DNA from: Acidobacteriota bacterium
GTDB taxonomy: Bacteria; Acidobacteriota; Terriglobia; Bryobacterales; UBA6623
Direction of reading: 5' to 3'
NCBI GenBank assembly: GCA_016125275.1
Contig: WGMB01000002.1
Location: 150,490-214,489, forward strand
DNA: 64,000 bases
Shown here: positions 621-54,609 of the stretch, piece after piece
Layout of the letters: every line of letters starts with the position of its first letter
Numbering within the stretch: the stretch's first letter is position 1
Notes under the pieces: model-generated
Seen by the model: the letters and a program-made list of their open reading frames with translations, nothing else
What the model was told of the DNA's origin: nothing
Database searches by the model: none
Position numbers and translations under genes: made by a program

Positions 621-737
621 CGAGGGGATTGTCTCCTTGGGCTGGCGGGAACCGAGAGAGTACCGCATGCCGGGGAAGGCAAGTCAAGGTTTGCATCGCC
701 CGGGGGCCTCCGGCGCCCTATACTGTGCGGTGGGACG

Positions 738-6544: not shown

Positions 6545-6620
6545 GGCAGACCGACGGGCCAGAACGTCCGTCTCCACCAAGAAGGCAGCCTGCGCCCCGC
6601 CTCGTGCTAGCATCTGACGA

Positions 6621-28063: not shown

Positions 28064-28178
28064 AAGCAACACGGTACAAAGCGTCCCCGCCCTCCGCAAG
28101 TCGGGCCCCTTGACCCGCCGCGCTATCCTGAAATCGTCCGAGCCCCAGCCCAGGGGAGCGGCTCATCGCGAGGCCCGG

Positions 28179-28240
28179 TTTGGCTCACCGCGAAGCTCTG
28201 TTTGGCTCACTTTGGCTCAGTCTGGCTCACTTTGGCTCAC
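28179..28240. repeat. 10-bp tandem repeat TTTGGCTCAC (4 contiguous units plus 1 unit 12 bp upstream)
   Basis: Units at 28179-28188, 28201-28210, 28211-28220 (..CAG), 28221-28230 (TCT..) and 28231-28240. The kinase stop codon (28237-28239) lies inside the last unit. Confidence 0.9.
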
Positions 28241-29568
28241 TTTTTGGCGAATTTTTCAGCCAAACGCCCCCGCCGCGCCTCTTCGAAGAACCCCGGGCCG
28301 CCCCTCTGGCCGCCCTTGAACACGATCTCCAGCCCGTCGGCCGGACCCTCCGCCCAGGCCCTGCACAAGGGCGATCCGGGCGCCAGCGGGGCAATCGCCG
28401 TCAGCGCGTAGATCCCCAGCGACTGGCCCACGCTCGACGACGTGTCGCCGCCGCAAACCACCGCCCGGCGCACGCCGGAAACGTCCAAAACCTGGCGCAA
28501 AACCGCCCCTAATCCGGCGCCCAATCGCTCGCGCAGCGCCGCGTCCCCGCGCACGATGCCCGGGTCGTCCGGCCCCAACGCCGTATACAGCACCGCGTTC
28601 CGCCCCGCCTCGAGCGCGGCGGCCGCCTCCCGCACGGCCGGCCCGGTCTCGCCCGCCGCCGTGGCCCGCGGGTCCAGCCGAACCCCTGCGTAGCCGCCCT
28701 CCAGCGCCGTCCGGATCGACGCCGCCGTCTCCGGCGAGCCGCTGCCCGAGACTACCACGATCCTTTCCGCCTCCGCGCCCGTCCGCTGGTCGCGCGTATC
28801 CAGTCCCAGCCAGCCCCTCGAACGCCAGTAGGCCGTCAGCGCGTACTGCAAGCCCGAAGAGGCCACCGCGAACGTCCGCTCCGCCGGCCGCTTCTCCCAA
28901 ATCAGCCGGCCCACCTCCAGCAGGCTCGCCTCGTCGAGCGCGTCGAACAAGACCGCCCGGGCCCCGGCCGCGACCTCCGCCGCCAGCCGGGCCTCGCCCC
29001 GCCCTGCCTTGAGCGCCAGAATGTCCACCAAGCCCACCGGCCGGTCGGTCTGCCGCGCCAGGTGCCGCCGCAGGTCGGCTTCATCCATCGGCGTCACCGG
29101 ATGCCGGCTCATCGTCGGATGCCGGTCCAGCCGGTGCGCCTCCTCGCCCACGGTCGCGAACAGGTTGCCGAACACCTGGTAGCGGTTCAGCTTCGGCGCC
29201 CCCACCACGATCGGAACCCAAGGCGTCCCCAGCAGATCCTGCCCGATCTCCAGCGCCCGCCCGATCGACCCCGCTTGCGGCGAGCTGTCGAACGTGGAGC
29301 AAACCTTGTAGTGGCACAGCGGCGCGCCCAGCTCCGCCAGCCGCCCCAGCAGGCCCGGCAAGTGCGCGTCCATCCACTCCGGGCCGCGCCCGCGGCTCTC
29401 GCCCGCCAACCCCACCGCCCGCGCGCCGGGGAAGCGCGCCAGCCTCGCCGCGTCCGGCGGCTCCACGAACAGCACCGTCTCCAGGCCGGCCCACGTCAGG
29501 ACCTCCATCACGTCCGTCGAGCCCGTGAAGTCGTCCCCGTAGAAGGTCAGCGCCAGCGGCGGAATCAC
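28237..29568 (-). CDS. DUF1537 four-carbon acid-sugar kinase family protein (OtnK/OiaK-like)
   Basis: ORF 28237..30600 is a frame artefact upstream of GTG 29568 (GTGA overlap with the RLP stop). VIPPLALTFYGDDFTGSTDVMEVL...HYKVCSTFDSSP...PTMSRHPVTPMDEADLRRHL is the DUF1537 N-domain signature. Confidence 0.85.
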   Translation of the reverse strand: MIPPLALTFYGDDFTGSTDVMEVLTWAGLETVLFVEPPDAARLARFPGARAVGLAGESRGRGPEWMDAHLPGLLGRLAELGAPLCHYKVCSTFDSSPQAGSIGRALEIGQDLLGTPWVPIVVGAPKLNRYQVFGNLFATVGEEAHRLDRHPTMSRHPVTPMDEADLRRHLARQTDRPVGLVDILALKAGRGEARLAAEVAAGARAVLFDALDEASLLEVGRLIWEKRPAERTFAVASSGLQYALTAYWRSRGWLGLDTRDQRTGAEAERIVVVSGSGSPETAASIRTALEGGYAGVRLDPRATAAGETGPAVREAAAALEAGRNAVLYTALGPDDPGIVRGDAALRERLGAGLGAVLRQVLDVSGVRRAVVCGGDTSSSVGQSLGIYALTAIAPLAPGSPLCRAWAEGPADGLEIVFKGGQRGGPGFFEEARRGRLAEKFAKK

Positions 29569-30827
29569 GGCCCGAACGTCTCCAGGGCCTGCCGAAACTC
29601 CGCGTGCTCGGCCGCCACGTCCTCGGCCGTACGGCCCGCCAGCGCGCCTTCCCAGGCTTGGCGGATGCTGGCCACGCCCGCCTCCGGCCCGCCCGGGTGC
29701 GCCACGATGCCGCCGCCGGCCGCGTGGATCAAGTCCGCCGAACCCAGCCGCGCATGGGTGTCGAACGCCTGCCCCGCCCACTGCCCCGACGAGAACACCG
29801 GCATCGCCTCGCAGCCGCGCCCCGCGCCCGCGAACAGCGGCGTCAGGCACTCCCGCGCCGAAGCCAGCACCGACTCGTCGGCCTCGCAGAACTTGTTGCG
29901 CAGCCCGTTCACGTGCAGGTGGTCCGCGCCGGCCAGCCGCCACAGCTTCTGCCAGGCCACATAGCTCACGCCGATCGCCGGCGACCGTGAATACAGGCCC
30001 CAGCCGTTGCGGTGCGCGTGGATGGGGAGTTGGCTGTGCCGCCGCAAGGCCGTCAGCCCGGGCAGCCCCACCGAATGCAGGCTCGCCATTACGCAGCTCC
30101 CGCCGGCTTGCAGCACGCGGTCGTGCCGCCGCAGCATCTCGTCCATCTCGCCCGTCAGGTTGAAGGCGAACATCACCTTCTTGCCGCTGCGCTCGGCATG
30201 GGCGTTGATCACCCGCATCACGGCGTCCACGCGCTCGTCGAACGGGCAGTGCGGCCCGTCGGCCTGTAGCTCGTCGTCCTTGATGAAGTCGACGCCCGCC
30301 GCCGCCAGCCGGTCGACCGCCGCCGCCGTCTGCTCCGGCGAAAGCCCCACGCTCGGCTTGATGATGGTGCCCACCAGCGGCAACCGCGCAACGCCAGCCA
30401 GCCGCCGCGTGCCCTCCACGCCGAACCGCGGCCCCGGATAGGCGTCGCGAAAGGCCTCCGGCAACCGCAGGTCCAGCAGCCGCAGCCCGGAAAACTGCTT
30501 CAGCTCGAACAGGTTGCCCGCCACCGTCGCCAGCAGGTTGGGCAGCGACGGCCCCATGTTGTCCAGCGGCCACGAGATCTCCGCCTCCGCCCGACGCCAC
30601 TCCGCAGCGGCCTTCGGCGCGCCCGCCCCCGGCAGCGAAGGCTCTCCCACGGCGTCGAGCTCCGTCAGCCGCTCGATCCGCGCCCCCGAACGCTCCTTCA
30701 GCTCCGGCGTCTCCCCCGGAACCTTCACAAAGGTCCCCGAGGACTGCTCCCCCGCCAGCGCCTCCACGGCCTGCAGCAGGGGGTAGGCCGTCTCGACCCA
30801 GTACGTGGCGTAGACTCGTTCGCCCAT
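29565..30827 (-). CDS. RuBisCO large-subunit-like protein (form IV, RLP)
   Basis: ORF 29565..31247 trimmed to ATG 30827 (MGERVYATYWVE). Motifs EQSSGTF, VAGNLFELK, GTIIKPSVGL, FIKDDELQ, IHAHRNG, AAGGGIVAHPGG. Confidence 0.9.
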   Translation of the reverse strand: MGERVYATYWVETAYPLLQAVEALAGEQSSGTFVKVPGETPELKERSGARIERLTELDAVGEPSLPGAGAPKAAAEWRRAEAEISWPLDNMGPSLPNLLATVAGNLFELKQFSGLRLLDLRLPEAFRDAYPGPRFGVEGTRRLAGVARLPLVGTIIKPSVGLSPEQTAAAVDRLAAAGVDFIKDDELQADGPHCPFDERVDAVMRVINAHAERSGKKVMFAFNLTGEMDEMLRRHDRVLQAGGSCVMASLHSVGLPGLTALRRHSQLPIHAHRNGWGLYSRSPAIGVSYVAWQKLWRLAGADHLHVNGLRNKFCEADESVLASARECLTPLFAGAGRGCEAMPVFSSGQWAGQAFDTHARLGSADLIHAAGGGIVAHPGGPEAGVASIRQAWEGALAGRTAEDVAAEHAEFRQALETFGP

Positions 30828-30832
30828 CGCCC

Positions 30833-31672
30833 CTACTTCTTGACTTCGGTGATGTCTCGAATGCTGCTGTCGATCGCTTCCTTCTCGAAGACCTTCTTCC
30901 AGTCCGGCTGGAACAGCACCGCCTGGGCCTTCTCGATCGCCTTCAGCGCCCCGTCGGAAAAGCGCGCTCCTTCGAACATCTGGAAGTAGATGCCGATCTC
31001 CACCTTCAGGTGCCCCAACACGAAGTCCTCGGCGGCCTTGCGCGGCACGCCCCGCCGCACGGCTTCTTCGGTGGCCTCGCGGATCATCCCCACGCACGAG
31101 GCGGCGATCGTCTCCGAAAGCACCGGCTCCAGAATCGCCATCTGGTCCACCGTCACCCGGTGGGCGTCCATCACCGGCGCGAAGATCGCCCGCGCGATCG
31201 CCTCGCCGTCGGCGTAAGCCGACTCCGGCCCCTGCATCAGGGCGCACACGATGTGCTGCTTGGCGTGCACGCCGCCGAAGAAGTCGAACTGCGCCTCCGG
31301 CGTCGTCTCATCGCCCACCACCGGCGGATGGCAGGGGTGCGTCACGAAGTACGACAGGTCGTCGCGCTCGGGCAGCTCTCCGGCGTACGGAGCCGCGGCG
31401 TCCAGACACACCACCAGGGTCCCGGCGGCCAAATCGCCCTGAATCTGCCGCGCCACCTGCCCGATGCGATTGTCCGGCACCGCCAGGATCACGGCCTCGG
31501 CGCCCGGCAGAGCGTCCTCGAGCGATACGGCCTCGAAGCCCTCGGCCGCCAGCGCCTCGCGCCCGCGTTCGCTGATCTCCACGTGCCGGACAACGTAGTC
31601 GGTCGGACGGAGGTTCCGGGCCAACCGCAGGCCCATCTTGCCTCCGGCGCCCAGCAAAACAATCGTCTTCAT
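30833..31672 (-). CDS. NAD(P)-binding Rossmann dehydrogenase (prephenate/6-phosphogluconate-dehydrogenase-like; possible D-apionate-oxidoisomerase-type enzyme)
   Basis: 279 aa, MKTIVLLGAGGKMGLRLARNL (GxGxxG). Stop lies 5 nt before the RLP start. The specific assignment is inference from context only. Confidence 0.7.
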   Translation of the reverse strand: MKTIVLLGAGGKMGLRLARNLRPTDYVVRHVEISERGREALAAEGFEAVSLEDALPGAEAVILAVPDNRIGQVARQIQGDLAAGTLVVCLDAAAPYAGELPERDDLSYFVTHPCHPPVVGDETTPEAQFDFFGGVHAKQHIVCALMQGPESAYADGEAIARAIFAPVMDAHRVTVDQMAILEPVLSETIAASCVGMIREATEEAVRRGVPRKAAEDFVLGHLKVEIGIYFQMFEGARFSDGALKAIEKAQAVLFQPDWKKVFEKEAIDSSIRDITEVKK

Positions 31673-31722
31673 GGCGTCTATCTACCCCAACAGCAACAGA
31701 GCCCCGGGCGTGAGCCCGGCCC

Positions 31723-33036
31723 CTACCAGCCCTCTTCCTCGCCCAGCTTCACCAAGGCCTTCTCCAGCCCGGCCAGCGTCTCCTCCGCCTCGGTCGCCGT
31801 ATGGACCACCGAGGTGTACATGCGCCCGTCAGCCAGCAGATACTGCCCCTCGTCGAGCGCCAACTGCAGAAACCGCCGCAGCCGCCGCGGATCGTCGTGC
31901 AACGTGTCGCGGTACTCGGTCAGCGCGCCTTCTTGGCTGGTGAAGTGCAGCGCGAAGGCGCAGCCGAAGCCCGTCGCCCGCAGCGGCGCGCCCAGCCGTT
32001 GCGCCATCGCGTTCACGCCGTCGCGAATGCCCAGCGCCAGCTTGTTCGCGTCCGCCAGCGGCTTGCCGCCCTCCGCCGCCAGCACCGCCAAGGTCGCCTT
32101 GGCCGCCATCATCGACATCGGGTTGCCGTTGAAGGTCCCGCCGAACGCCGCCTTGCCTTCCTCCAGCAGCCGGAAGATCTCCGCCTTGCCCGTCAGCGCG
32201 CTCAGCGTCGGACCGCCGGCGATCGCCTTGCCGAAGCTCGCCATGTCCGGCGTCACCCCGTACTGCGTCTGCGCCCCGCCGATGTGCATCCGGAAGCCCG
32301 TGATGATCTCGTCGAAGATCAGCAGCGCCCCGCGCCGCGTGCACAGCTCGCGCAGCGCCGCCAAGTAGCCCTCGCCCGGCGCCAGACAGCCGCTGTTGCA
32401 CAGGTACGGCTCCAGGATCACCGCCGCGATCTGGCCCTCGTGGGCGTCGAAGGTCGCCTCCACGGCCTCGATCGAGTTCCACCGCGCCACCACCAGGTTG
32501 TCCGCCGCGTTCGGCGTCTGGCCGCCCGAGCCCGGCGAGGGCTTGCCCGTCAGCACCTGCTCGGCCGTCGGCTTGTAGCTCCACAGCACCGAATCCATCC
32601 AGCCGTGGTAGTGGCCCTCGAACTTCAAAATCAGCGGACGCCCCGTCGCCGCCCGCGCCAGCCGCAGCGCCAACTGCACCGCCTCGCTGCCGCTGCAGGT
32701 GTAGGCCACCCGCTCGGCGCAGGGAACCAGCGACTGAATCGTCTCGGCGACCTCGTACTCCAGGTCGTGCTGCGCGCCGTAGTTGTGCGGACGCACCGCC
32801 GCCTCGCTCATCGCCTCCACCAGCGCCGGATGCCGATGGCCCAGAATCAGCGGCCCCCAGGCCAGCGCATAGTCGATGTAGCGGTTGCCGTCCACGTCCA
32901 GCAGACGCGGCCCTTCGGCGTCCTGAAAGTAGAGCGGCACGGGCGCCTTCGCCCGAAACGGGCTGCTCACGCCGCCCGGAAGAGAGTGACGAGCCCGCTC
33001 CAGTCGCTCGCGGGACCCTTGGTATCGATCCGACAT
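31723..33036 (-). CDS. Class-III (HemL-like) PLP aminotransferase/aminomutase family protein
   Basis: 437 aa, ARHSLPGGVSSPFRA...DVDGNRYIDYALAWGPLILGHRHPALVEAM...DMASFGKAIAGG (PLP lysine). Close to, but divergent from, glutamate-1-semialdehyde aminomutase motifs. Confidence 0.85.
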   Translation of the reverse strand: MSDRYQGSRERLERARHSLPGGVSSPFRAKAPVPLYFQDAEGPRLLDVDGNRYIDYALAWGPLILGHRHPALVEAMSEAAVRPHNYGAQHDLEYEVAETIQSLVPCAERVAYTCSGSEAVQLALRLARAATGRPLILKFEGHYHGWMDSVLWSYKPTAEQVLTGKPSPGSGGQTPNAADNLVVARWNSIEAVEATFDAHEGQIAAVILEPYLCNSGCLAPGEGYLAALRELCTRRGALLIFDEIITGFRMHIGGAQTQYGVTPDMASFGKAIAGGPTLSALTGKAEIFRLLEEGKAAFGGTFNGNPMSMMAAKATLAVLAAEGGKPLADANKLALGIRDGVNAMAQRLGAPLRATGFGCAFALHFTSQEGALTEYRDTLHDDPRRLRRFLQLALDEGQYLLADGRMYTSVVHTATEAEETLAGLEKALVKLGEEEGW

Positions 33037-33133
33037 TTCTTCGTTCTAACTCCAGCCCGAGACTCCCGTCCCGGGCTCTGTTTCGCTCACGCCAACGCTG
33101 ACGGCGCCCCAAGCGTCAGCCCGGGGCCCGCCG

Positions 33134-33952
33134 TCAAAACCACAACCGCCGCGCCGTCGCTCCCAACACCTGCTCGCGCGCCGCGGCGCTCAACGGCAGG
33201 TCCTTCTGAAAGATCCGCAGATGCTCCGCGTAGCTGACCTTCGGTGTCCACAGCTCGCACGGAAAGTCGCTGCCCCACACGCACCGCTCCGGCCCGTAGG
33301 CGTCGATCACCTTCAGAATCGGCTCGTGCATGTCCGCGCAGGGATAACCCGTGGCGCTGCCGGTCGGCACGCAGGTCACCTTGGCGTGCAGGTTGGGTCG
33401 GTTCGACAGGAACAGCACAGCATCGAGGATGGGCTGCAGCTCCGGTCCGACCTTCAGGTTCAAGCAATGGTCCAGCACCACCGGCAATGCGCGGAAGTCC
33501 CGCAGCAGCCGGTCGATCTCCCCGGTCTTCTCGCGCGTCGTGAGCACGTTGATCACCAGGCCCATGTCGAGCGCCGTCCGCCACAGCGCACGGACGCCGG
33601 GGTGATCCAAACGCCCGTCAGCCGCCGGAATCGAGCGCATGCCCTTGATGCCGTAGTCGCGCGCCAACCCGGCCAGCAGCAAAGGGCTGTCGGGATTGTC
33701 CGGGCTCAGCGTCACCACGCCGGCCGTCCAGTCCGGGTTGGCCTTGGCGCTGTCGGCGATGTAGCGGTTGTCGAAGCGGTAGAACGTGCTCACCTGGATC
33801 AGGCAGCAGGCCGCCACGCCGGCCGCCTGGGCGTCCTTGCGCAGGTCTTCCAGCGAGCCCTTGCCGCCCGGCGGCCGCAGCGGCTTGTCGATCACCGGAT
33901 AGCGCCGCTCGTCGGGAGAGTAGATGTGCGCGTGCGTATCGACGATGTCCAT
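33134..33952 (-). CDS. Amidohydrolase_2 family metal-dependent hydrolase (lactonase/decarboxylase type)
   Basis: ATG 33952 gives MDIVDTHAHIY (HxH metal motif). Also VVLDHCLNL and CVWGSDFP, typical of PF04909-type enzymes. Confidence 0.8.
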   Translation of the reverse strand: MDIVDTHAHIYSPDERRYPVIDKPLRPPGGKGSLEDLRKDAQAAGVAACCLIQVSTFYRFDNRYIADSAKANPDWTAGVVTLSPDNPDSPLLLAGLARDYGIKGMRSIPAADGRLDHPGVRALWRTALDMGLVINVLTTREKTGEIDRLLRDFRALPVVLDHCLNLKVGPELQPILDAVLFLSNRPNLHAKVTCVPTGSATGYPCADMHEPILKVIDAYGPERCVWGSDFPCELWTPKVSYAEHLRIFQKDLPLSAAAREQVLGATARRLWF

Positions 33953-34066: not shown

Positions 34067-35530
34067 TCAAGCCAGGATGGCGTTCACCAGCTCCCCATGC
34101 ACGTCGGTGAGCCGGAAGTTGCGGCCCTGGAACTTGTAGGTCAACTGCCGATGGTCGATGCCCAGGCAGTGCAGCAGCGTCGCGTGCAGGTCGTGTACGT
34201 TCAGCGGGTCCTTCACCACGTTGTAGGAGTACTCGTCGGTCTCTCCGTACACCAGCCCCGGCTTGAGCCCGCCGCCGGCCGCCCACATCGTAAAGCAGCG
34301 CGGGTGATGGTCGCGCCCGTAGGTCTCGGCCGTCAGCGTGCCCTGGCAGTACACCGTGCGGCCGAACTCCCCGCCCCACACCACCAGCGTGTCGTCCAGC
34401 AGCCCGCGCCGCTCCAGGTCCAGCACCAGCGCCGCCGACGCCTGGTCGGTGTCCTGGCACTGCTCCGGCAAGCGCTTCGGCACGCCCGCGTGGGTGTCCC
34501 AGCCGCGATGGAACAGTTGGATGAAGCGCACGCCGCGCTCGCTCAGCCGCCGCGCCAGCAGGCAGTTGGCGGCATAGGTGCCCGGCTTGCGGGAGTCCTC
34601 GCCGTAGAGCTGGAAGGTCTCCTCCGGCTCGCTCGAAAAGTCCGTCAGCTCCGGCACCGACGACTGCATCCGGTAGGCCATCTCGTACTGCGCGATGCGA
34701 GTCTCGATCTCCGGGTCGGCCATCTCCTCGTAACGCATCCGGTTGAGCTCGGAGAGGTCGTCCAGAAAGCCCCGCCGGTCGTCCTGGTCAAAGCCCTCCG
34801 GGTTGTTCAGGTACAGCACCGGGTCCTTGCCCGAGCGGAACTTCACCCCGGCGTAGCGCGTCGGCAGAAAGCCCGAGCCCCACAGCCGGCTGTAGAGCGG
34901 CTGGCCCTTGGTCTTGCCGTACGAGGTCATCACCACGAAGGCCGGCAGGTTGTGGTTCTCGCTGCCCAGCCCGTAGGCCAGCCACGACCCCATGCTGGGC
35001 CGCCCGGCCAACTGGTGGCCGGTCTGCAGGAAGGTGATGGCCGGGTCATGGTTGATCGGCTCGGTGTGCATCGAGCGCAGCACGGCGATCTTGTCGACGA
35101 TCTTGGCCGTATGCGGCAACAGCTCGCTCACCCAAGCCCCGGACTGCCCGTGCTGCTGAAACTTAAAGTGCGAAGCGGCCACCGGAAAGCGCGTCTGCGC
35201 CGCCGTCATGCCGGTGAGCCGCTGCCCGCCGCGGATCGAGTCCGGCAAGTCCTGGTTCTGATACTTCTCGAGCAGCGGCTTGTAGTCGAACAGATCCATC
35301 TGCGCCGGCCCGCCGGACTGGAACAGGTAGATCACCCGCTTGGCCTTGGGCGCGTGATGCGGCAACCCGGGCAAGCCGCCGTTCTCGGTCGAATCCAGCG
35401 TCGGCGCGGCGGACAAGTCCCGCCCCAACAGCGAAGCCAGCGCCGCGGTCCCCAAACCAAACGCCGAGCGGCCAAAGAACCGCCGCCGCGTCAACTTCAA
35501 GGCCTGCTCAGGGGAGCTCAGTAAATCCAT
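34067..35530 (-). CDS. DUF1501 domain protein (sulfatase-fold, Tat signal)
   Basis: ATG 35530 gives [36 protein letters not shown]. Also [27 protein letters not shown] and [17 protein letters not shown]. Confidence 0.9.
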
Positions 35531-35570
35531 CGCCAATTTGCCTCGGAAGAGCGTAAACCGTGATCCGTCC

Positions 35571-35650
35571 CACTGCTCACTGCTCACTGCTCACTGCTCA
35601 CTGCTCACTGCTCACTGCTCACTGCTCACTGCTCACTGCTCACTGCTCAC
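35571..35650. repeat. Heptanucleotide tandem repeat (CACTGCT) x 11.4
   Basis: Perfect 7-bp periodicity from 35571 to 35650. On the transcribed (minus) strand it reads (GTGAGCA)n and starts within the TGA stop of the DUF1553 gene. It ends 40 nt before the DUF1501 start. Confidence 0.95.
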
Positions 35651-38600
35651 TCTTTCGTAATCGCCTCGTCCAAATTCAAAATCAAACTCGCCACCGCCGC
35701 ATACGCCGCCTGCTCGGCCGGCTCGATCGCCTCGCTGCGCGGCGAGTCGCCCTGGCTCAGCAGCTTCTCCGCGTCGGCCGGGTGCACCGCGTAGCGTTGC
35801 TGGTAGCGCTGCAAGCCGCGCTTGAGCACCGCCAACTCGGCCTGCCCCGGCTCGCGGGCCGTCGCCAGCCGAAAGCCGTAGTCCAGCCGCGCCTCGGCGT
35901 CCGAGCCGCCTTCGGTCAGCATCCGCTCGCCGAGTTTGCGGGCCGCCTCCACGTAGGTCACGTCGTTCATCAGCCCCAGCGCCTGCAGCGGCGTGTTCGT
36001 GCGCGTCTCCCGCACCACGCACGTCTCGCGCGGCGCGGCGTCGAAGGCCACCATCGACGGCGGCGCGATCGTCCGCTTCCAGAAGGTGTACAGGCTGCGG
36101 CGGTACAGGTCGCCGCCCTTGTCGTGCTCGTACTCCTCCCAGTTCGACAGCTCCGTCCACAGCCCGGCCGGCTGGTAGGGCTTCACCGACGGTCCGCCGA
36201 CCCTCTCGCTGAGCAGCCCGGCCACCGCCAGCGCCTGGTCGCGCACGGCCTCGGCCGGCAGCCGCACCCGCGGCCCCCGCGACAGCAGCTTGTTCTGCGG
36301 GTCCTTCTCGAGCTTGTCCGGCGTGAGCTGGGAACCCTGCCGGTAGGTCGCGCTCAGCACGATCCGTTTGAGCAGCGCCTTGGTATCCCAGCCCGATTCC
36401 ATGAACTCCGCCGCCAGCCAGTCCAGCAGCTCCGGGTGCGTCGGCCAGGAACCCTGCGAGCCGAAGTCCTCCACCGTCTCCACGATCCCTTGGCCAAACA
36501 GCATCTGCCAGAAGCGGTTCACCGTCACCCGCGCAGTCAGCGGGTTGTCCCGGCTCACCAGCCACTCCGCCAGCCCCAGCCGGTTGTTCGGACCGCCGGC
36601 CGGCAGCGGCGGCAGCACCGCCGGCACGCCCGGCTCCACCGCCTCGCCCGGCGCGTCATACGCCCCGCGCTTGAGCAGGTGCGTCTGGCGGCCCGCCGCG
36701 TCGGACATCACCATCACCGTGGGGAAGCCGTCGGTCATCTCCTGCCGCGCGAGCCGCAGCCGCCGCAGCTCGCGCCAAGCCTCGCCCGCCGGCCCGGACG
36801 CCTCGTCGCTCAAATAGGCCCAGCGCAGCTTGCGCCCCGCGGCCTCGGACCGCTCGGCCGCCGCCAGGGCCGCCAGAGCCGGCGTCCCCTCCTCCACGGC
36901 CAGCACCGCCGCCTCGTCCGCGGACAGGTCGCGGTCATACAGCCTTAGGTCTTCCAGCTCGCCCCGGAACAGGTCCGTCATCTCCGGGCCCACGCCCGCC
37001 CGCAGCGGCGTCTTCGGCAGCGTGATCTCGTTGTTGGAGTGGTCCTCCACCACCTCCAGCTCCACCGGCCGGCCGTCGACGTAGATCTTCATGCCGCGCG
37101 TCAGCCGCGAGCCGTCGTAGGTGAACGTCAGGTGGCTCCAGGCGCCCACCGGCAAGGGCTTCACCGCGCGCACGTCGGTCGAGTCGTCCAAGCCGTTGCC
37201 CATCCGGAAGCGCGGGCGCCCCTCGTCGAGGTAGAAGCCCCAGCCCTTGCCGCCGAACAGGTCGCCCTTGGCCGACGATTTCGCCACCAGCCCGGCCGTC
37301 TGGATCTCGTCGGGCCGCACGCGCACGCCGATCGAAAGCCGGTCATAGAAGCTGTAGCCGCCCTCCTCGCCCAGGTCGGCAAAGTCCTTGCCCTCGAACT
37401 TCCGGGGCCCTTCGCCGAACGTCGCAAACAGCAGGCTCTCGTCAAAGCTCCACGGCTGAACCGGCTGCCAAGCCTGCAGCCCACGAGCGACGTCGCCCTC
37501 CAAACCCTGCAGCGTCGCCTCGGTCTTCTCGATGCGCGCGTCCAGCGCCGCCAGCTTTTCGGCCTGCTCGGCCGTCGGCGCCTGCACGAACGGCGGCGTA
37601 TTGCCGTACTTGAAGTAGCGGCCCCGGTCCGGCACCTGGTTGAAGTACGCGAAGAGCTGGTAGAACTCCTTCTGCGTCAGCGGATCGTACTTGTGGTCGT
37701 GGCAGCGGGCGCAGCCCATCGTCAGCCCCATCCACACCATCGAGGTCGCCTCCACGCGGTCCACCACGTACTCCACGTGGTACTCCTCGGGCACGATCCC
37801 GGCCTCGCCGTTGCCGCGGTGGTTGCGGTTGAAGCCGCTGGCGATGCGCTGCTCGAGCGTGGCATTGGGCAGCAGGTCGCCGGCGATCTGCCAAACCGTG
37901 AACTCGTCGAACGGCAGGTTCTTGTTGTAGGCCTCGATCACCCAGTCGCGCCAGCGCCACATGTCGCGCTCCTGGTCGTTCTGGTAGCCGTTGGTGTCGG
38001 CGTAGCGCGCCGCCTCCAGCCAGCGGAAGGCCATCCGCTCGCCGTAACGCGGGGAGGCCAGCAGCCGGTCCACCACCTTTTCATAGGCGTCGGCGGACTC
38101 GTCGGCCACAAAGGCGTCCACCTCGGCCGGCGTCGGCGGCAGCCCGGTAAGGTCCAGCGTCGCGCGCCGCGCCCAGGTCGCCCGGTCGGCTTCCTTGGTC
38201 GGGCGCATGTCCTCGCGGTCCAGCCGCCGCGCCACAAAGCGGTCGATCGGGTCACGCGCCCAGCCCTCTCCGTTGGGCGGAACCGTCGGCCGCTCCACGC
38301 GCTGGAAGGCCCAGTGGCCCTCCCACTCCGCGCCCTGCTCGATCCAGCGCGTCAGCGTCGCGATCTCACGCTCGCTGAGCTTGGCGTGCCCCTTGTAGGA
38401 GGGCGGCATCCGCCGCACGGGGTCCTCCGAGCTCACCCGCTCGATCAGCTTGCTCTGGGCCGGATCGCCCGGCACGATCGCCTTGCCGCCCGACAGCAAG
38501 TCCACGAACGCACCCTCGCGCGAGTCGAACCGCAGCGGCGTGGAGCGGTTGCCGGCGTCCGGGCCATGGCAGGCGAAGCACTTGTCCGACAGGATCGGCC

Positions 38601-38682
38601 GGACGTCCCGGTTGAAGCGGACCTCCTGCGCGGACGCGGCCAACGCCGCCAGCAGACCCAAGGCGCACAGACTACGCAACAT
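35647..38682 (-). CDS. PSCyt1/PSCyt2(DUF1549)/LamG/PSD1(DUF1553) protein
   Basis: ATG 38682 gives the signal peptide MLRSLCALGLLAALAASAQ. RDVRPILSDKCFACHGPD, PIDRFVARRL...LDLTGLPPTPAEVDAFV, NRFWQMLFGQGIVETVEDFGSQG. Confidence 0.9.
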   Translation of the reverse strand: MLRSLCALGLLAALAASAQEVRFNRDVRPILSDKCFACHGPDAGNRSTPLRFDSREGAFVDLLSGGKAIVPGDPAQSKLIERVSSEDPVRRMPPSYKGHAKLSEREIATLTRWIEQGAEWEGHWAFQRVERPTVPPNGEGWARDPIDRFVARRLDREDMRPTKEADRATWARRATLDLTGLPPTPAEVDAFVADESADAYEKVVDRLLASPRYGERMAFRWLEAARYADTNGYQNDQERDMWRWRDWVIEAYNKNLPFDEFTVWQIAGDLLPNATLEQRIASGFNRNHRGNGEAGIVPEEYHVEYVVDRVEATSMVWMGLTMGCARCHDHKYDPLTQKEFYQLFAYFNQVPDRGRYFKYGNTPPFVQAPTAEQAEKLAALDARIEKTEATLQGLEGDVARGLQAWQPVQPWSFDESLLFATFGEGPRKFEGKDFADLGEEGGYSFYDRLSIGVRVRPDEIQTAGLVAKSSAKGDLFGGKGWGFYLDEGRPRFRMGNGLDDSTDVRAVKPLPVGAWSHLTFTYDGSRLTRGMKIYVDGRPVELEVVEDHSNNEITLPKTPLRAGVGPEMTDLFRGELEDLRLYDRDLSADEAAVLAVEEGTPALAALAAAERSEAAGRKLRWAYLSDEASGPAGEAWRELRRLRLARQEMTDGFPTVMVMSDAAGRQTHLLKRGAYDAPGEAVEPGVPAVLPPLPAGGPNNRLGLAEWLVSRDNPLTARVTVNRFWQMLFGQGIVETVEDFGSQGSWPTHPELLDWLAAEFMESGWDTKALLKRIVLSATYRQGSQLTPDKLEKDPQNKLLSRGPRVRLPAEAVRDQALAVAGLLSERVGGPSVKPYQPAGLWTELSNWEEYEHDKGGDLYRRSLYTFWKRTIAPPSMVAFDAAPRETCVVRETRTNTPLQALGLMNDVTYVEAARKLGERMLTEGGSDAEARLDYGFRLATAREPGQAELAVLKRGLQRYQQRYAVHPADAEKLLSQGDSPRSEAIEPAEQAAYAAVASLILNLDEAITKE

Positions 38683-38778
38683 TGCTCGCCCGTGATCATA
38701 ACGGATTCGCAACCCCTCGGCCGTGCGACTGGACGGTAACGTGCAGCATTGCGGACGCGCCCTTACTTTTTTCGCCCC

Positions 38779-40020
38779 ATGCGTCTGTTCCCCGTATCCC
38801 TTCTGCTGCTGAGCGCCCTGACGGCTTTTCCTGCCGGCTTGGCCGCCCAGGAGCTGCACTGGTTCGATAGCTACGACGCGGCGCTCGAAGAGGCTCGGCG
38901 GACCGGCAAGCCGATCTTCCTCGAGTACCGCTGCTCGCCTTGACGGCTCGGCCGTGAATTCGACGCACAGGTTGTGCTGTCGCCGCTAGACTCCAAGCGC
39001 GGAAAGCTCATGAGCGAGTACGTCACCGCCAGGATCATTCGCCTGGATGAGGTGGACTTCGGCCTGTTTGACTGGGACCGCCACAACACCGTCTACTTCT
39101 TCGTCCTCAACGCCGACGAGCAGATCTACCTGCGCTACGGCGGCCGCGACGCTCGCTCGTTCGACTCCTACCTCGGCCTGGAGAGCCTCGAGCTGGCTCT
39201 CGAGAAGGGCCTGGAGCTGCACGAGAAGTACAAGGCCGGCGAGCTGCCCAAGAAGCCCCGCGGCGCGCCCGACTTCGCCAAGGACTACCCGCTGCTGGTG
39301 GAGCGCACCATCGGCAACGGCGCGTGCGTCGAGTGCCACCTCGTCAACGACTACAAGGCCCAGCACAAGGAGCTCGACGGCACGCTCGACAAGGTGCGCG
39401 ACATGTACCGCTCGCCCGACATCCGCACCATCGGCATCCACCTCGACGCCCCCAAGGGCCTGCTGGTGGCGAGCGCGGAAGGCATGGCGCAAGCCGCCGG
39501 CATGCAGCCGGGCGACACCATCACGGCGCTCGAAGGCGTGCCGGTCTATACCTTCGGCGACCTGCAGTACAACTACGACAAGGTCGACCGGGCCGCCCGC
39601 TCGGCGACCTTCACGGTCGATCGCGCCGGCGAGTCGGTGGACCTCGCCGTCGAGCTGCCGCTGCGTTGGTGGCTCACCAACCTCGACTTCCGCCACTGGA
39701 CCATCGAGCCCCGGGTGTACTTCGAGTCCGATCCGCTGACGGCCGAGGAGAAGCGCTCGCTCGACCTGCCCGAGGACGGTTTCGCCAGCCGCGTGCGCCT
39801 GGTCGAAGGCGTCGCCGGGCTGCTCGGCCTGCATGAGCTCAAGGTCGGCGACATCGTCTACGGCGTGGCCGGCGTCCAGACCGACCCCGACGCCAACTCC
39901 GCCGAGCTCTATCTGAAGCTGCGCACCAAGTCCGGCTCCGAGACCACCCTCCAGGTTCTGAGGGATGGAGAGCGGATCGAGATGCCGCTCAAGTCCGCCC
40001 GCATGGGCTTTCGGAAATAA
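38779..40020 (+). CDS. Secreted thioredoxin-like (C-S-P-U) / CxxCH / 2xPDZ protein; requires read-through of in-frame TGA 38941-38943 (candidate selenocysteine)
   Basis: ORFs 38749..38943 and 38974..40020 share a frame and are separated by a single TGA. The joined sequence GKPIFLEYRCSP-U-RLGREFDAQVV fits the Trx-fold active-site region. The signal peptide occurs only on the upstream part. A SECIS-like hairpin follows the TGA. Confidence 0.6.
38961..38982 (+). other. SECIS-like stem-loop downstream of the in-frame UGA
   Basis: CGAC-GCACA-[GGT]-TGTGC-T(bulge)-GTCG. The stem starts 18 nt after the TGA and the apical-loop G lies 27 nt after it. Confidence 0.5.
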
Positions 40021-47444: not shown

Positions 47445-47681
47445 GTTCACCTCATTGGATGCCGCGCCCGGCTCGGCGGTTGCGGCCGACCGGCCTTCCG
47501 GGGGAGTCCGACCGACCCGATTTCCTCGATGAAGATCCGGTAAAGAATGCCCCTCTATCGCGGGAATCTCGCTCCCGAAACTGTAGGCCGAGAGCCTCCT
47601 TCACCGAGCTGTCACCGCTTAGTAACAGAGCCGATGCTAGCCCTAAGAGTATGCGCGGTTGCGCGCAAATCCGATAAACCT

Positions 47682-50600
47682 ATGTCTCGAAAACTTCTTT
47701 GGCTACCGCTGCTCGCGGTAAGTCTCGCAACGGGTCTGCATGCCCAGTTCGACAATGCAGCCGTCCTAGGAACCATCCGCGACGCCTCCGAGGCCGTCAT
47801 CCCCGGCGCTTCGATTCAGTTGACCAACGTCAACACCGGAATCGCCCAGCGCGCGACGACCGACGAAGCCGGCAACTTCCAATTCCTGAACGTTCCGATC
47901 GGATCTTATCAGGTGGAAGCCGAAAACGCAGGATTCAAGAAGGCTGTCTCCGATATCTTTACCGTCGTGGTCGGCGCCCGTCAGCGCGTCGACCTGAATC
48001 TGCAGGTGGGCGACACGACCGAGACGGTCGAAGTCACCGGCGCGGCTCCGATCATTGAGACCGACTCGAGCGACCGCTCCACGGTCATCGGCTCGAAGCA
48101 GGCCGTGGACCTGCCGCTCAACGGCCGCGCCTACGCCGACCTTACGCTGCTGGCGCCGGGCACCTCGCGCGCCCAGGTCAGCACCTCCGGCGGTCGTGAC
48201 GCCTCCTACCACGTCAACGGTCAGCGCAGCTCCTTCAACAACTTCTCGCTCGACGGCGTGGATAACAACTCCTACGGCACCTCCAACCAGGGGTTCTCCA
48301 ACCAGGTGGTGCAGCTCTCGCCCGACGCGGTCGGCGAGTTCAAGGTCGTCACCGACAGCTTCTCGGCCGAGTACGGCCGGGCCGGCGGCGCCGTCATCAA
48401 CGCCTCCTACAAGAGCGGCACCAACCAGTACCACTTCACCCTGTGGGAGTTCCTGCGCAACACCGACCTCAACGCCACGGGCTTCTTCAAGCCTTCCAAC
48501 GGCAAGCCCAACCTGGTGCAGAACCAGTTCGGCGCGGCCGGCGGCGGCGCGATCGTCAGGAACCGCGCGTTCTTCTTCGGCGACTACGAAGGCGTGCGCC
48601 GGCGGCAGAGCCAGCTCACCTTCGCCACCATCCCGAACGCGGCGATGCGCAGCGGCCAGATGAACGCCCCGATCGTCGATCCTTACACCGGCGCCTCCTA
48701 CGGCGGTGACGGCTCCAGCATCCCGCTGAGCCAGCAGACCAGCCTGGCGCGTCAGGTGCTGGCCGATCTGCCCGCCCCCAACCGCTCCGGCTCCGGCGCC
48801 TACGGCATCGGCAGCAACTACGAGTCGCTGCCCTCGGAGAAGTACGACGACAACAAGGGCAACATCAAGGTCGACTACTACGCCAACAGCAAGCTGACGT
48901 TCTTCGGCCGCTACAGCCAGCGTGAGCTCAACTGGTTCGCGCCGCCCAACATCCCCGGCCCCTCCGGCGGCAGCTCCAACGGCACGCTCTACGCCACCAA
49001 CCAGGCCTTCGTCGGCGGCACCACCTGGACCATGACGCCGACCTCCCTGCTCGAGGTGCGCGTCGGCTACACCCACTCCAGCGCCGGCAAGACCCCGGTC
49101 AACTTCGACCTGCCGCACGTGACCGACACCTACGGCATCCCGGGCGTCACCCGCGACGACCGCATCGGCGGCGGCTTGAACGCGCAGTCGGTCTCCGGCT
49201 TCTCGAGCTGGGGTCGCCAGACCTCCAACCCGCAGTTCCAGAACCCCGATGTGGTCAACCCGCGCGTGAACTACTCGCGGATCCTGTCGCGGCACACCCT
49301 CAAGCTCGGCTACGAGTACCAGTCGATCAACACCGACATCAACGACCTGGCGCCCACCTACGGCTCCAGCACCTACTCCGGCCGCTTCAGCGCCGGCGGC
49401 TCGGCGGGCGACGCCAACATCTTCAACCTGGCCGACTTCTTCGTGGGCGCCCAGTCGCAGTACCAGATGTCCACGTTCAACGTCCTCAAGTACCGCCAGC
49501 GGATGCACTTCGGCTACGTGCAGGACGACTGGAAGGCGAGCTCCAAGCTCACCCTCAACCTCGGCGTGCGTTACGAGTTCGCCACCCCGCAGTGGGAACG
49601 CGACAACCGCCTGGGCAACTTCGACCCGACGACCAACTCGCTGCTGTTCGCCAAGAACGGCAGCCTGTATGACCGCGCCCTGGTCCACCCGGACAAGAAC
49701 AACTGGGCGCCGCGCATCGGCTTCGCCTACCAGGCCATGAAGAAGACCGTGATTCGCGCCGGCTACGGCGTGAGCTACATCCACTTCAACCGCATGGGCG
49801 GCGAGAACATCCTGGGCTTCACCGGGCCGTTCACCTACGCCATCACGCGCACCCAGACCGCGCCGGGCGTCTCCAACGGCTCCCCGCTGTGCGGCTCCGG
49901 CCAGGACTTCACCACCTGCTTCACGCGGACCTTGGACGGCTACCCGGCCAACTTCCTCGACCCGTCGCAGTACTCCACCTCGCGCGCCCGCATCAACTAC
50001 TCGCCGGCGGACAACCGCACCGGCTACGTGGAGAGCTGGCACTTCACCATCCAGCGCCAGCTCGGCAAGAACCTGGCTCTGGACCTGGCCTACGTGGGCA
50101 ACCGCGGCCGCCACCAGATGATTCTCAGCGACTACAACCAGCCGTTGCCGAACCAGCCGAACGAGAACGTCAACCTCAACGCCCGCCGCCCGATCTCGGG
50201 CTTCCAGGAGATCCAGATCTCCTACGACGAGGGCCGCACCAACTACAACGCGTTCCAGTTGAAGCTCGAGAAGAAGTTCTCCGCCGGTCTCTACTTCATC
50301 AACTCCTTCACCTGGTCCAAGGCGATCGACAACGCCCCGGGCCACCTGGAGACCTACAACGGCGACAGCTCGCGCATCAACTTCTACAACGTGGCCAGCG
50401 AGGGCGGCCTGTCGAGCTACAACTCGGCGGCCAACAACGTCACCGGCCTGATCTGGGACGTTCCCTTCGGCAAGGGCCGGCAGTGGGGCAATGACGCCAA
50501 CCCGGTCGTCAACGCCGTGCTGGGCGGCTGGCGCACCACGCTGATCAACACTGCGCGTACCGGCTACCCGGTCCACATCTACTACAGCCCGTCGTCGCAG

Positions 50601-50975
50601 TTCCAGGCCTGCGGTAGCTGCCGTCAGCGCCCGAACTACCTCGGCGGCGACCTCTACGGCGATCGCCTGGACCCGAACAACTACTTCAACAAGGCGGCTC
50701 TGGCGATCCCGACCGATCCGTCGCATCCGTTCGGCAATCTGGGCCGCAACGTGGTCAATTCGAGCGGCCTGTGGCAGTCCGACATCGGCATCTACAAGGA
50801 GTTCCCGCTGCCTCGCGAAGGCGCCCGCGTGGAGTTCCGCACCGAGCTGTTCAACGCTCTCAACCGCACCAACTTCACGGCGCCGAACTCGGACGCGGCC
50901 TCGTCGAGCTTCGGTCGCATCACCAGCACGTTCCCGGCCCGCCAGATCCAGTTTGCTCTCAAGCTGTACTGGTAG
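47682..50975 (+). CDS. TonB-dependent receptor with N-terminal carboxypeptidase-regulatory-like domain (Oar-like), copy 1
   Basis: ATG 47682 gives the signal peptide MSRKLLWLPLLAVSLATGLHAQ. GNFQFLNVPIGSYQVEAENAGFK; plug region ETDSSDRSTVIGSKQAVDLPLNGR; C-terminal ...RQIQFALKLYW. Confidence 0.9.
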   Translation: MSRKLLWLPLLAVSLATGLHAQFDNAAVLGTIRDASEAVIPGASIQLTNVNTGIAQRATTDEAGNFQFLNVPIGSYQVEAENAGFKKAVSDIFTVVVGARQRVDLNLQVGDTTETVEVTGAAPIIETDSSDRSTVIGSKQAVDLPLNGRAYADLTLLAPGTSRAQVSTSGGRDASYHVNGQRSSFNNFSLDGVDNNSYGTSNQGFSNQVVQLSPDAVGEFKVVTDSFSAEYGRAGGAVINASYKSGTNQYHFTLWEFLRNTDLNATGFFKPSNGKPNLVQNQFGAAGGGAIVRNRAFFFGDYEGVRRRQSQLTFATIPNAAMRSGQMNAPIVDPYTGASYGGDGSSIPLSQQTSLARQVLADLPAPNRSGSGAYGIGSNYESLPSEKYDDNKGNIKVDYYANSKLTFFGRYSQRELNWFAPPNIPGPSGGSSNGTLYATNQAFVGGTTWTMTPTSLLEVRVGYTHSSAGKTPVNFDLPHVTDTYGIPGVTRDDRIGGGLNAQSVSGFSSWGRQTSNPQFQNPDVVNPRVNYSRILSRHTLKLGYEYQSINTDINDLAPTYGSSTYSGRFSAGGSAGDANIFNLADFFVGAQSQYQMSTFNVLKYRQRMHFGYVQDDWKASSKLTLNLGVRYEFATPQWERDNRLGNFDPTTNSLLFAKNGSLYDRALVHPDKNNWAPRIGFAYQAMKKTVIRAGYGVSYIHFNRMGGENILGFTGPFTYAITRTQTAPGVSNGSPLCGSGQDFTTCFTRTLDGYPANFLDPSQYSTSRARINYSPADNRTGYVESWHFTIQRQLGKNLALDLAYVGNRGRHQMILSDYNQPLPNQPNENVNLNARRPISGFQEIQISYDEGRTNYNAFQLKLEKKFSAGLYFINSFTWSKAIDNAPGHLETYNGDSSRINFYNVASEGGLSSYNSAANNVTGLIWDVPFGKGRQWGNDANPVVNAVLGGWRTTLINTARTGYPVHIYYSPSSQFQACGSCRQRPNYLGGDLYGDRLDPNNYFNKAALAIPTDPSHPFGNLGRNVVNSSGLWQSDIGIYKEFPLPREGARVEFRTELFNALNRTNFTAPNSDAASSSFGRITSTFPARQIQFALKLYW

Positions 50976-50998
50976 GGGCGGTTTCGGGTAACCCAACT

Positions 50999-51027
50999 GT
51001 TGCGGGGCCGGCCTTCGGCCCCGCAAC
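50999..51027 (+). terminator. GC-rich hairpin after TonB-dependent receptor copy 1
   Basis: GTTGCGGGGCCG-(5 nt)-CGGCCCCGCAAC, 24 nt after the stop. No clear U-tract. Confidence 0.45.
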
Positions 51028-51279
51028 ACACCCGAAAATCCGGGGTCCTCGGCAGAAATTTGCGCCTTTTGGAGCCGCTCCCGGCGGCCCTTTGCTGAGC
51101 CCCTATCCGGTTTACTTTTCCGTCACTTCCGCATCCCCTCCCAACCCTTCGATACCGTCTCGCAACGTTTGTGACCCAACCGTAGCCCGGGTGACCTCAG
51201 GGCTTCACGGTTTCGAGACGGAATCGTAGCACCCCCTTGTTAGTGGTGGTTGAGGCGCAAAGGGGCGCCTGAATCACCC

Positions 51280-54200: not shown

Positions 54201-54609
54201 GAACGTGCGCTACAGCCCGACCGCGCAAGAGCAGACCTGCTCGGGCTGCAACCCCCGCCCGATGTACGTGGGCGGCCCGCTGGTCAACGACGGCAAGCCG
54301 ATCGACAACTTCTTCAACCAGGACGCGATTCGCCGACCGGAGATCAACGACCCGAACTTCCCGTTCGGCAACCTCGCGCGCAACGTGGCCCGGGGCCGCA
54401 ACTTCTGGCAGGCAAACTTCGGCCTGTTCAAGGAGTTCCCGCTGCCTCGCGAGGGCGCCCGCGTGGAGTTCCGTTCGGAGTTCTTCAACCTGTTCAACCG
54501 GACGAACTTCCAAGCTCCGGAAGGCAACCTCAACTCGGGCAACTTCGGCTACATCCGCAGCACGGAGCCGGCCCGTCAGATCCAGTTCGCGCTCAAGCTG
54601 TACTGGTAG
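51280..54609 (+). CDS. TonB-dependent receptor with N-terminal carboxypeptidase-regulatory-like domain (Oar-like), copy 2
   Basis: ATG 51280 gives MQRHLLWISLCLAGLPIQLAAQ. Collinear with copy 1 over its whole length, with many identical blocks. Confidence 0.9.
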   Translation: MQRHLLWISLCLAGLPIQLAAQFDNAAVLGTVRDASKAVIPAASVTLTNVNTGIERKAQSNDVGNYQFLNVPNGQYQVAAEAPGFKTSVSDAFTVEVGARQRADLELEVGATSETVEVTGAAPLIETDSSDRGTVIGQKQAVDLPLNGRAYADLTLLTPGTTQAIKGTVSGGGRDGAYHVNGLRSSYNNFTLDGVDNNHFGTSNQGFSSQVVQLSPDAVGEFKVVTNNYSAEYGKAGGAIINAAYRSGTNQYHLTLWEFMRNTKLNATGFFKPQDGKPNFNQNQFGASGGGPIIKNKAFFFADYEGRRLRSSQLTYASIPTLDMRQGIIGAPVVDPFTGAAYGGDGGTVPQSLQLPYATKMMADLPAPNAVGVGAGGFSNNFESLPSTKQDDNKGNIKGDFYFNDKFSVFGRYSHRELNWFAPPSIPGPSGGDSNGNTYAKNIAFVTGATWTVSPTSLLEVRVGLTHSRGGKTAVNAGLPHPSETYGIPNLPVNDIIGGGSPSFPISGFTQLGRQRSNPQFQNPDVVNPRVNYSKIFSNHSIKVGFEGQWVNTDINDLGPNLGGFRFTGRFSEAGQALNPSGFNRNIFNIADFFVGAQSQLELAVFDILKYRQRMRFGYVQDDWKVNSKLTLNLGVRYEFATPQFEKNNKIGNFDPATNSLVFAHDGSLFDRALVRPDKNNWAPRIGAAYQLRNKTVLRGAYGISYVHFNRMGGENILGFTGPFIFRVNKDQVPDRFVGSGGYPTCSDITNFVNCFVRTQQGIPNNFLASDQYNPQITRVNMQPYDNRTAYVQAWHFTIQQQLAKDLVFDLGYVGNYSNKQLILGDYNQAAPITDVNDRRNINDRRPIDGFSQIQIAFSQGKTWYNGLQAKLEKRFSKGLYLLNAFTWSKTLDNAPGHLEAFNGDTSRVNYYNLPMEKGLSSYNIPVNNVTSVIWDIPFGHHRSYGSNVNPVVNAVLGGWRTTLIHTARSGYPVNVRYSPTAQEQTCSGCNPRPMYVGGPLVNDGKPIDNFFNQDAIRRPEINDPNFPFGNLARNVARGRNFWQANFGLFKEFPLPREGARVEFRSEFFNLFNRTNFQAPEGNLNSGNFGYIRSTEPARQIQFALKLYW

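Follow-up and report, generated by a model that had tools for sequence, protein, structure and literature searches.

The five-gene cluster and its ApnO, RLP and kinase genes

We analyzed a stretch of 64,000 nucleotides (the window) from a bacterium of the Acidobacteriota, order Bryobacterales (contig WGMB01000002.1), with focus on a cluster of five minus-strand genes that includes a gene for a form-IV RuBisCO-like protein (RLP). In the direction of transcription the cluster encodes an Amidohydro_2 protein, a class-III aminotransferase, a homolog of the D-apionate oxidoisomerase ApnO, the RLP and a DUF1537 acid-sugar kinase (Table 1). The original prediction, made from the letters of the window without database searches, had placed five genes here, and strong Pfam matches were found for each of them. 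The predicted GTGA overlap between the RLP stop codon and the kinase start codon (-4 nt) was read in the junction letters, as was a gap of 5 nt between the ApnO and RLP genes. The aminotransferase and ApnO genes are separated by 50 nt, and the amidohydrolase and aminotransferase genes by 97 nt. The amidohydrolase start at position 33952 agrees with a database gene call of 272 aa (P0241). The G+C content of the window is 64-72%, and the source genome was assembled from a metagenome.

The segment 28237-31672, which holds the ApnO, RLP and kinase genes, is probably an Acidobacterial copy of the known D-apiose/D-apionate module, and the aminotransferase and amidohydrolase are then lineage-specific neighbors and not conserved parts of that module.

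Table 1. Features of the RLP cluster and its upstream neighbors in the window.
Feature	Coordinates	Strand	Evidence and remarks
DUF1537 acid-sugar kinase, OiaK-like, 443 aa	28237-29568	minus	SBD_N 2.4e-53, NBD_C 5.2e-25; GTG start
Form-IV RuBisCO-like protein (RLP), 420 aa	29565-30827	minus	RuBisCO_large 2.4e-63, RuBisCO_large_N 6.8e-09
D-apionate oxidoisomerase (ApnO) homolog, 279 aa	30833-31672	minus	PGDH_C 3.1e-62
Class-III HemL-like aminotransferase, 437 aa	31723-33036	minus	Aminotran_3 8.5e-60
Structured GC-rich spacer with two strong hairpins	33037-33133	minus	Between amidohydrolase and aminotransferase; folding
Amidohydro_2 protein (COG3618-type, lactonase-like), 272 aa	33134-33952, open reading frame to 33988	minus	PF04909 1.3e-30
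DUF1501 protein, upstream syntenic neighbor	34067-35587	minus	PF07394 4.4e-160
PSCyt1-PSCyt2-LamG-PSD1 protein, DUF1501 partner, upstream syntenic neighbor	35647-38859	minus	Pfam

The gene between the aminotransferase and the RLP had been described as a Rossmann dehydrogenase. The gene is real and its product matches PGDH_C, but it is more exactly a clear homolog of ApnO, since it aligned to PDB entry 5T57 over residues 3-275 of 279 with 310 bits and about 56-57% identity. 5T57 is named apnO, D-apionate oxidoisomerase, in a classification paper (bioRxiv 10.1101/2020.08.24.261826). The 5T57 sequence, recovered from its alignment, was searched against all fetched loci and was found to match a gene on plasmid pBB1 of Cupriavidus necator N-1 with 100% identity. 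Directly downstream of this gene, pBB1 encodes an RLP that shares 62% identity with that of the window, followed by a DUF1537 kinase; this is the gene order of the window. The ApnO-RLP-kinase order was found in loci L113, L056, L061, L062, and L099.

The best NCBIfam match of the kinase was OiaK (NF042436) with 536 bits relative to a cutoff of 700, and the next one, 3-oxo-tetronate kinase, scored 178 bits. In most related loci a kinase adjoins the RLP, and the window kinase shares 42-57% identity with these proteins.

ApnO, OiaK, and an RLP reportedly take part together in an oxidative pathway for D-apiose and D-apionate. Homology and synteny of the ApnO, RLP and kinase genes in the window are evident, and by analogy with the characterized family their chemistry would be as follows. 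ApnO would oxidize D-apionate with NAD+ and migrate the hydroxymethyl group, producing 3-oxo-isoapionate, which the kinase would convert to 3-oxo-isoapionate-4-phosphate. The RLP would then split this compound into 3-phosphoglycerate and glycolate, most likely as a transcarboxylase/hydrolase. The pathway of Carter et al. (2018, Nat Chem Biol 14:696) is cited in PMC12994016 and PMC6302742.

The RLP clade, its reaction and its genomic contexts

A survey with one genome per species gave 80 loci with RLPs that were 53-73% identical to the window RLP. The hosts of this clade include Bryobacteraceae, Xanthobacteraceae (Ancylobacter, Starkeya), Microvirga, Paraburkholderia, Sphingomonas, Acidobacteriaceae, and some archaea. 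The window RLP was 62-68% identical to the cluster RLPs of C. necator N-1, Paraburkholderia sprentiae, Microvirga, and Ancylobacter. In the pairwise matrix it was 68% identical to the RLP from Ancylobacter and 62% identical to that from C. necator, while the latter two were 63% identical to each other; all three were 42-46% identical to the clade described by NCBIfam model NF042437. Based on these pairwise identities the window RLP lies inside the diversity of the RLPs from apiose/apionate clusters, and the conserved positions agree with the nesting that had been proposed as a refuting test: only three departures (I152V, A394G, and L411F), all of them conservative, were found from positions at which 95% or more of the clade agree. 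The KDDE motif is intact, and KPS stands where RuBisCO reads KPK; we take both motifs to have catalytic roles in RuBisCO. Judged from these residues there is no sign of an altered active site. A bona fide RuBisCO of forms I-III was considered and rejected, as the scores were 229 bits relative to a cutoff of 497 (form III) and 212 relative to 438, and as the motif is KPS and not KPK.

NF042437 was the only apiose-related NCBIfam match of the window RLP, which scored 464.7 bits and thereby fails the equivalog cutoff of 700. Ten other RLPs of the clade, together with plasmid-borne members, scored 409-488 bits, so the whole window clade is equally distant from the model. The proteins that NCBI names by NF042437 are RLPs from Rhizobium, Sinorhizobium, and Agrobacterium, 42-44% identical to the window RLP. 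The gene symbols are used inconsistently: the original prediction gave OiaC for the decarboxylase, whereas the product name of NF042437 gives OiaX, and we name the activities instead. No NCBIfam model exists for the window clade, and this explains why PGAP gives the clade members examined, those of complete apiose clusters included, only the generic name 'ribulose-bisphosphate carboxylase large subunit family protein'. When nine RLPs of the clade were looked up by exact sequence in protein clusters, generic names were likewise all that was returned, with no functional label and no entry from Xanthobacter autotrophicus.

A passage of PMC6302742 attributes decarboxylation and transcarboxylation/hydrolysis to the RLPs of A. 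radiobacter K84 and X. autotrophicus. The clade from Rhizobium and Agrobacterium (Rhizobiaceae) is the family that NCBIfam describes as a decarboxylase, whereas the RLPs of Xanthobacteraceae belong to the window clade, are 68-69% identical to the window RLP and are encoded beside the kinase and ApnO. Tetrulose-phosphate isomerases were not among the recurrent neighbors of the window RLP clade in the gene families from the 80 loci, which fits a route that ends directly in 3-phosphoglycerate and glycolate. On these grounds it seems fairly likely that the window RLP is of the transcarboxylase/hydrolase type with these two products. A decarboxylase route to L-erythrulose-1-phosphate is considered less likely.

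To examine the neighborhoods of the clade, the 80 loci, taken with flanks of up to 10 kb per side, were searched by tblastn with the proteins of the window. A kinase homolog was present in 73 loci, in 70 of them directly after the RLP, and an ApnO homolog in 43. No class-III aminotransferase was found in any of the 80 loci, even at E <= 1e-3, nor in the next-closest relatives, so that the co-occurrence of the aminotransferase with this RLP clade, which the original prediction had put forward for testing, was not borne out. By a strict test no locus contained an Amidohydro_2 homolog either, and the single weak match had 24% identity. The original prediction had counted the amidohydrolase to the core set of the pathway, but 79 of the 80 loci lack a counterpart and have a protein of about 700 aa and/or an SMP-30 lactonase beside a Gfo/Idh/MocA gene instead.

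Neighbor families were built from stop-to-stop open reading frames (ORFs), filtered by G+C content at third codon positions (GC3) and clustered by all-against-all BLAST, and the commonest were labeled with Pfam. Recurrent neighbors of the RLP were GntR/FCD regulators, ABC sugar permeases, MFS and TRAP transporters, Gfo/Idh/MocA dehydrogenases, the protein of about 700 aa, which has no Pfam match, an Asp/Glu-racemase-like protein and the plant-wall glycosidases GH127, GH78, and GH42. Complete apiose-type clusters with an RLP of the window clade were found in Microvirga and P. sprentiae. In the annotated clusters from Microvirga and Paraburkholderia the Gfo/Idh/MocA gene adjoins a gene for a protein of about 650 aa without a Pfam match. 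The P. sprentiae cluster also encodes an SMP-30 lactonase, and its kinase is named OiaK by PGAP. The usual partners of the RLP clade are thus those expected for catabolism of apiose from plant walls, and the window amidohydrolase is outside this set.

A second arrangement without ApnO, here termed context B, has a GH127 gene directly upstream of the RLP and kinase genes (L048, 8123-14531; L024, 7890-14615; L054, 7969-16027). It recurs in about 20 more of the loci L007-L055, with Sphingomonas, Acidobacteriaceae, and Steroidobacteraceae as hosts. An MFS transporter, an Asp/Glu/hydantoin-racemase-like gene on the opposite strand and GH78, GH42, and GH32/43-like glycosidases are found nearby. To our knowledge context B is not obviously among the described apiose routes, and it may represent an uncharacterized route for another sugar of rhamnogalacturonan-II. 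Six alignment positions separate the RLPs of context B from the ApnO-type RLPs, and the window RLP matches the ApnO type at four of them.

The aminotransferase, the amidohydrolase and the surrounding DNA

The aminotransferase scored 344 bits with one hemL model (cutoff 527) and 359 bits with another (cutoff 398), and the whole family scored 344-396 bits. Compared to the GSAM of Synechococcus (2GSA), the lysine that binds pyridoxal phosphate (PLP) and the N-terminal SSPxR motif (here SSPFR) are kept. In all family members examined, however, the sequence of the gating loop was not conserved relative to 2GSA and two residues, 'FE', were deleted. The deleted segment includes Glu406, which presumably has a functional role in GSAM. 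By sequence the protein is a HemL-like transaminase and not HemL. Family members are named HemL by JGI and 'aspartate aminotransferase family protein' by NCBI.

Seven homologs of the aminotransferase with 57-64% identity and long flanks had no RLP, ApnO, kinase, or amidohydrolase gene nearby. Three of the four homologs with gene tables share another gene order, which comprises a CBS-domain protein, the aminotransferase and an MscS channel on the opposite strand. This micro-synteny was seen in Bryobacterales loci L088 (2342-4160), L089 (7528-9329) and L091 (7548-9323). The aminotransferases linked to an RLP form a small subclade nested in the family, with branches of 0.225-0.238 compared to about 0.17. 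Most likely the window aminotransferase is a passenger and its substrate unrelated to the module.

When the family profile of the amidohydrolase was compared to PDB, only 2FFI, 4MUP, 4DLF (listed with 4DNM and 4DO7) and 4I6K were found, with 25-46 bits. The family alignment keeps the HxH and D/H pattern of the metal site, and the score with the NCBIfam fuconolactonase model was 30 bits relative to a cutoff of 400. The protein belongs to PF04909 and its solved relatives are of the lactonase type, as would be expected for a sugar lactonase of the Amidohydro_2 family. It is plausible from these similarities that it hydrolyzes a sugar lactone, and as a weak inference it may be predicted to serve as a substitute D-apionolactone hydrolase. 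Amidohydrolase homologs with 69-73% identity were found in variable contexts, without an RLP and without an aminotransferase.

The aminotransferase and amidohydrolase genes were found beside the ApnO-RLP-kinase genes in four metagenomic contigs only (L082, L083, L084, and L100). In these contigs and the window the whole block of seven genes, from the PSD1 gene to the kinase gene, has 75-90% amino-acid identity; DUF1501 is 88-90% identical in the four close relatives and the PSD1 protein 75% identical in L082 and L100. At this level of identity shared ancestry alone explains the synteny. Three loci in which the RLP has 76-80% identity lack both the aminotransferase and the amidohydrolase. L081 has the RLP and kinase genes only, L098 has ApnO on the other strand together with a Gfo/Idh/MocA gene, and L099 has the ApnO-RLP-kinase order and a Gfo/Idh/MocA gene. 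A metagenome scan with the aminotransferase gave only 13 loci; these included an additional copy of the block (L100), and in none of them was the aminotransferase independently linked to an RLP.

The 97-nt spacer between the amidohydrolase and aminotransferase genes has a minimum free energy of -57.1 kcal/mol, with z = -4.6 relative to shuffles. As no conservation of its sequence is seen in L082, L084, or L100, a conserved RNA element was rejected. The spacer is a possible transcript boundary. A promoter scan found no sigma-70-like promoter, and the count of terminator-like sites (2) was below that of shuffled sequence (5.5). The hairpin between the aminotransferase and ApnO genes folds no better than shuffles (z = -0.3).

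We scanned all neighboring genes out to 15.5 kb and 47.5 kb as well as large GC3-supported ORFs elsewhere in the window. Among these genes there was no Gfo/Idh/MocA protein that could be a D-apiose dehydrogenase, no relative of the apiose-cluster protein of about 700 aa and no usual lactonase candidate. There was also no solute-binding protein, no ABC, MFS, or TRAP transporter and no GntR/NanR-type sugar regulator. The predicted lack of a sugar dehydrogenase, a transporter or solute-binding protein and a regulator near the cluster thus held for the scanned genes, and a permease fragment and outer-membrane barrels were found only far off. Genes for a Gfo/Idh/MocA protein and the protein of about 700 aa may be located elsewhere on the 783-kb contig.

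The permease fragment (3-683, minus strand) belongs to the L-lactate permease family (PF02652) and is cut off by the edge of the window, at a distance of 28 kb from the cluster. The L-lactate permease family also takes in glycolate permeases. Two tandem genes of about 1100 aa each (47547-54609, plus strand) have CarboxypepD_reg, Plug, and OMP_b-brl_4 domains and resemble TonB-dependent receptors; genes of this kind are also found on the flanks of the RLP loci L098 and L099.

A peroxiredoxin gene is located downstream of the kinase gene, and the spacer between the two (28160-28243) contains tandem repeats, with a 10-nt unit TTTGGCTCAC present 4.3 times and a 22-nt unit present 2.3 times. Upstream of the cluster, L082 (5980-6795), L084 (1654-2328) and L100 (about 6300-7100) have a Pfam-less gene of 224-271 aa between the DUF1501 and amidohydrolase genes. 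The window is without this gene, and only about 80-115 nt separate DUF1501 from the amidohydrolase.

Two Planctomycete-type gene pairs are present in the window, PSD2-5/PSCyt3 with DUF1552 (456-4387, plus strand) and PSCyt1/2-LamG-PSD1 with DUF1501 (34067-38859, minus strand), and DUF1501/PSD1 pairs are also found near the RLP in L081, L099, and L003. A functional tie of the DUF1501/PSD1 pair to the module was rejected, as the DUF1501 proteins encoded close to the RLP in L099 and L003 have only 45-48% identity to that of the window and represent different paralogs, and as Planctomycete-type pairs occur twice within the 64-kb window. The adjacency of DUF1501 to the module is probably coincidental.

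Alternative readings and relation to known systems

Several observations weigh against reading the ApnO-RLP-kinase segment as a copy of the D-apiose/D-apionate module with two lineage-specific neighbors. An apiose dehydrogenase, a typical lactonase, a transporter and a regulator are all absent from the scanned window genes, which leaves no visible source of D-apionate. Both the kinase and the RLP score below the NCBIfam equivalog cutoffs, and the sole RLP model describes another clade. About half of the RLP clade, found in context B, is without ApnO, and clade membership alone leaves the substrate unfixed. The choice of RLP reaction draws on one sentence in PMC6302742 and on taxonomy. The five genes are moreover found together in five sequences although the flank downstream of the kinase differs between the window, L082, and L084, and the small gene between DUF1501 and the amidohydrolase was gained or lost while the five-gene block stayed intact. 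That the block is kept together by selection is weakly indicated by this, because the sequences are few and very close.

It is unlikely that the five genes constitute one functional operon, in which the amidohydrolase would replace the apionolactonase and the aminotransferase would aminate a keto intermediate or glyoxylate derived from glycolate. Apart from the persistence of the block in the window and its four close relatives, the co-directional genes with gaps of -4 to 97 nt would fit such an operon, as would the separate subclade, longer branches and shortened loop of the RLP-linked aminotransferases. The amidohydrolase also groups with lactonase-type members, and the window has no copy of the usual lactonase candidate. 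However, with 75-90% identity over seven genes, ancestry suffices for the synteny, the aminotransferase is absent from all 80 species loci and from those with 76-80% RLP identity, and Bryobacterales often have members of both families in unrelated contexts. The amidohydrolase and aminotransferase genes have the strongly structured spacer between them, and the known route needs no amino transfer at any step. Quite unlikely is also that the RLP, kinase, and dehydrogenase act on another branched or linear acid sugar by an undescribed RLP reaction. The scores below the equivalog cutoffs would allow for this, the occurrence of the RLP clade in an ApnO-less context with GH127, GH78, GH42, and a racemase-like gene suggests diversity of substrates, and neither an apiose dehydrogenase nor an apiose-binding transporter was seen in the window. 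The ApnO homolog with about 57% identity to 5T57 in the gene order of the 5T57 locus argues against it, as do the match of the RLP to the ApnO type at four of six separating positions, the lack of non-conservative changes at clade-invariant sites and the presence of Gfo/Idh/MocA genes nearby in the close relatives L098 and L099.

A third alternative concerns the aminotransferase only, which could be the host's own HemL for haem synthesis, located here by chance. HemL models are its best matches, JGI labels family members HemL and one homolog adjoins genes for haem A/O synthesis, but we regard this as very unlikely, as the family scores of 344-396 bits are below both cutoffs, the NCBI name is only that of an aspartate aminotransferase family protein, and the gating-loop sequence and the 'FE' segment with Glu406 are absent relative to 2GSA. 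We favor a known pathway with a passenger gene, which was one of the two possibilities raised in the original prediction, since the RLP is nested and the aminotransferase is missing from the 80 loci and at 76-80% RLP identity. The other possibility, that of a new reaction of the RLP with an amino- or keto-acid-sugar phosphate, is disfavored by the position of the RLP within a known clade and by the lack of aminotransferase linkage beyond close relatives.

Read as a copy of the D-apiose/D-apionate module, the segment extends the RLP-dependent D-apionate route to soil Acidobacteria and involves no new chemistry. This fits a role of Acidobacteria in the degradation of pectin (rhamnogalacturonan-II). 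Because gene order is poorly conserved in Bryobacterales, the adjacency of genes within a single genus speaks only weakly for a common function. If true, the apionate route would have a new variant in the five-gene operon. A more promising lead is found outside the window in context B, where Sphingomonas and Acidobacteriaceae have GH127, RLP, and kinase genes with a racemase-like gene but without ApnO, an arrangement that is apparently undescribed.

Among known systems, the closest solved structure to the RLP is PDB 3NWR from Burkholderia fungorum (420 bits over the full length), for which the entry gives no function and the host is a Betaproteobacterium. With the decarboxylase-type RLPs of NF042437 the window RLP shares the superfamily and the presumed substrate 3-oxo-isoapionate-4-phosphate, but those proteins form a separate clade with neighbors of their own (aldo/keto reductases, SDR, and a BKACE-family protein). 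The COG3618-type lactonases, namely L-fucono-1,5-lactonase (4DLF/4DNM/4DO7) and the LigI-like 2FFI, are the only solved relatives of the amidohydrolase family and share its metal-site pattern, although the similarity is very distant. The aminotransferase has the fold, the PLP lysine and the SSPxR motif in common with HemL/GSAM (2GSA, 5I92), but it is below all HemL cutoffs and the loop has diverged. The closest counterpart of the cluster is the ApnO-OiaK-RLP module for apionate. The window differs from this module in that no Gfo/Idh/MocA gene, usual lactonase, ABC/MFS/TRAP transporter, or GntR/NanR regulator is nearby, that the host is an Acidobacterium and not a Proteobacterium, and that two extra upstream genes are present in this genus-level lineage only. 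The three protein families, their tight linkage, the gene order of C. necator N-1 and the adjacency of RLP and kinase are the same.

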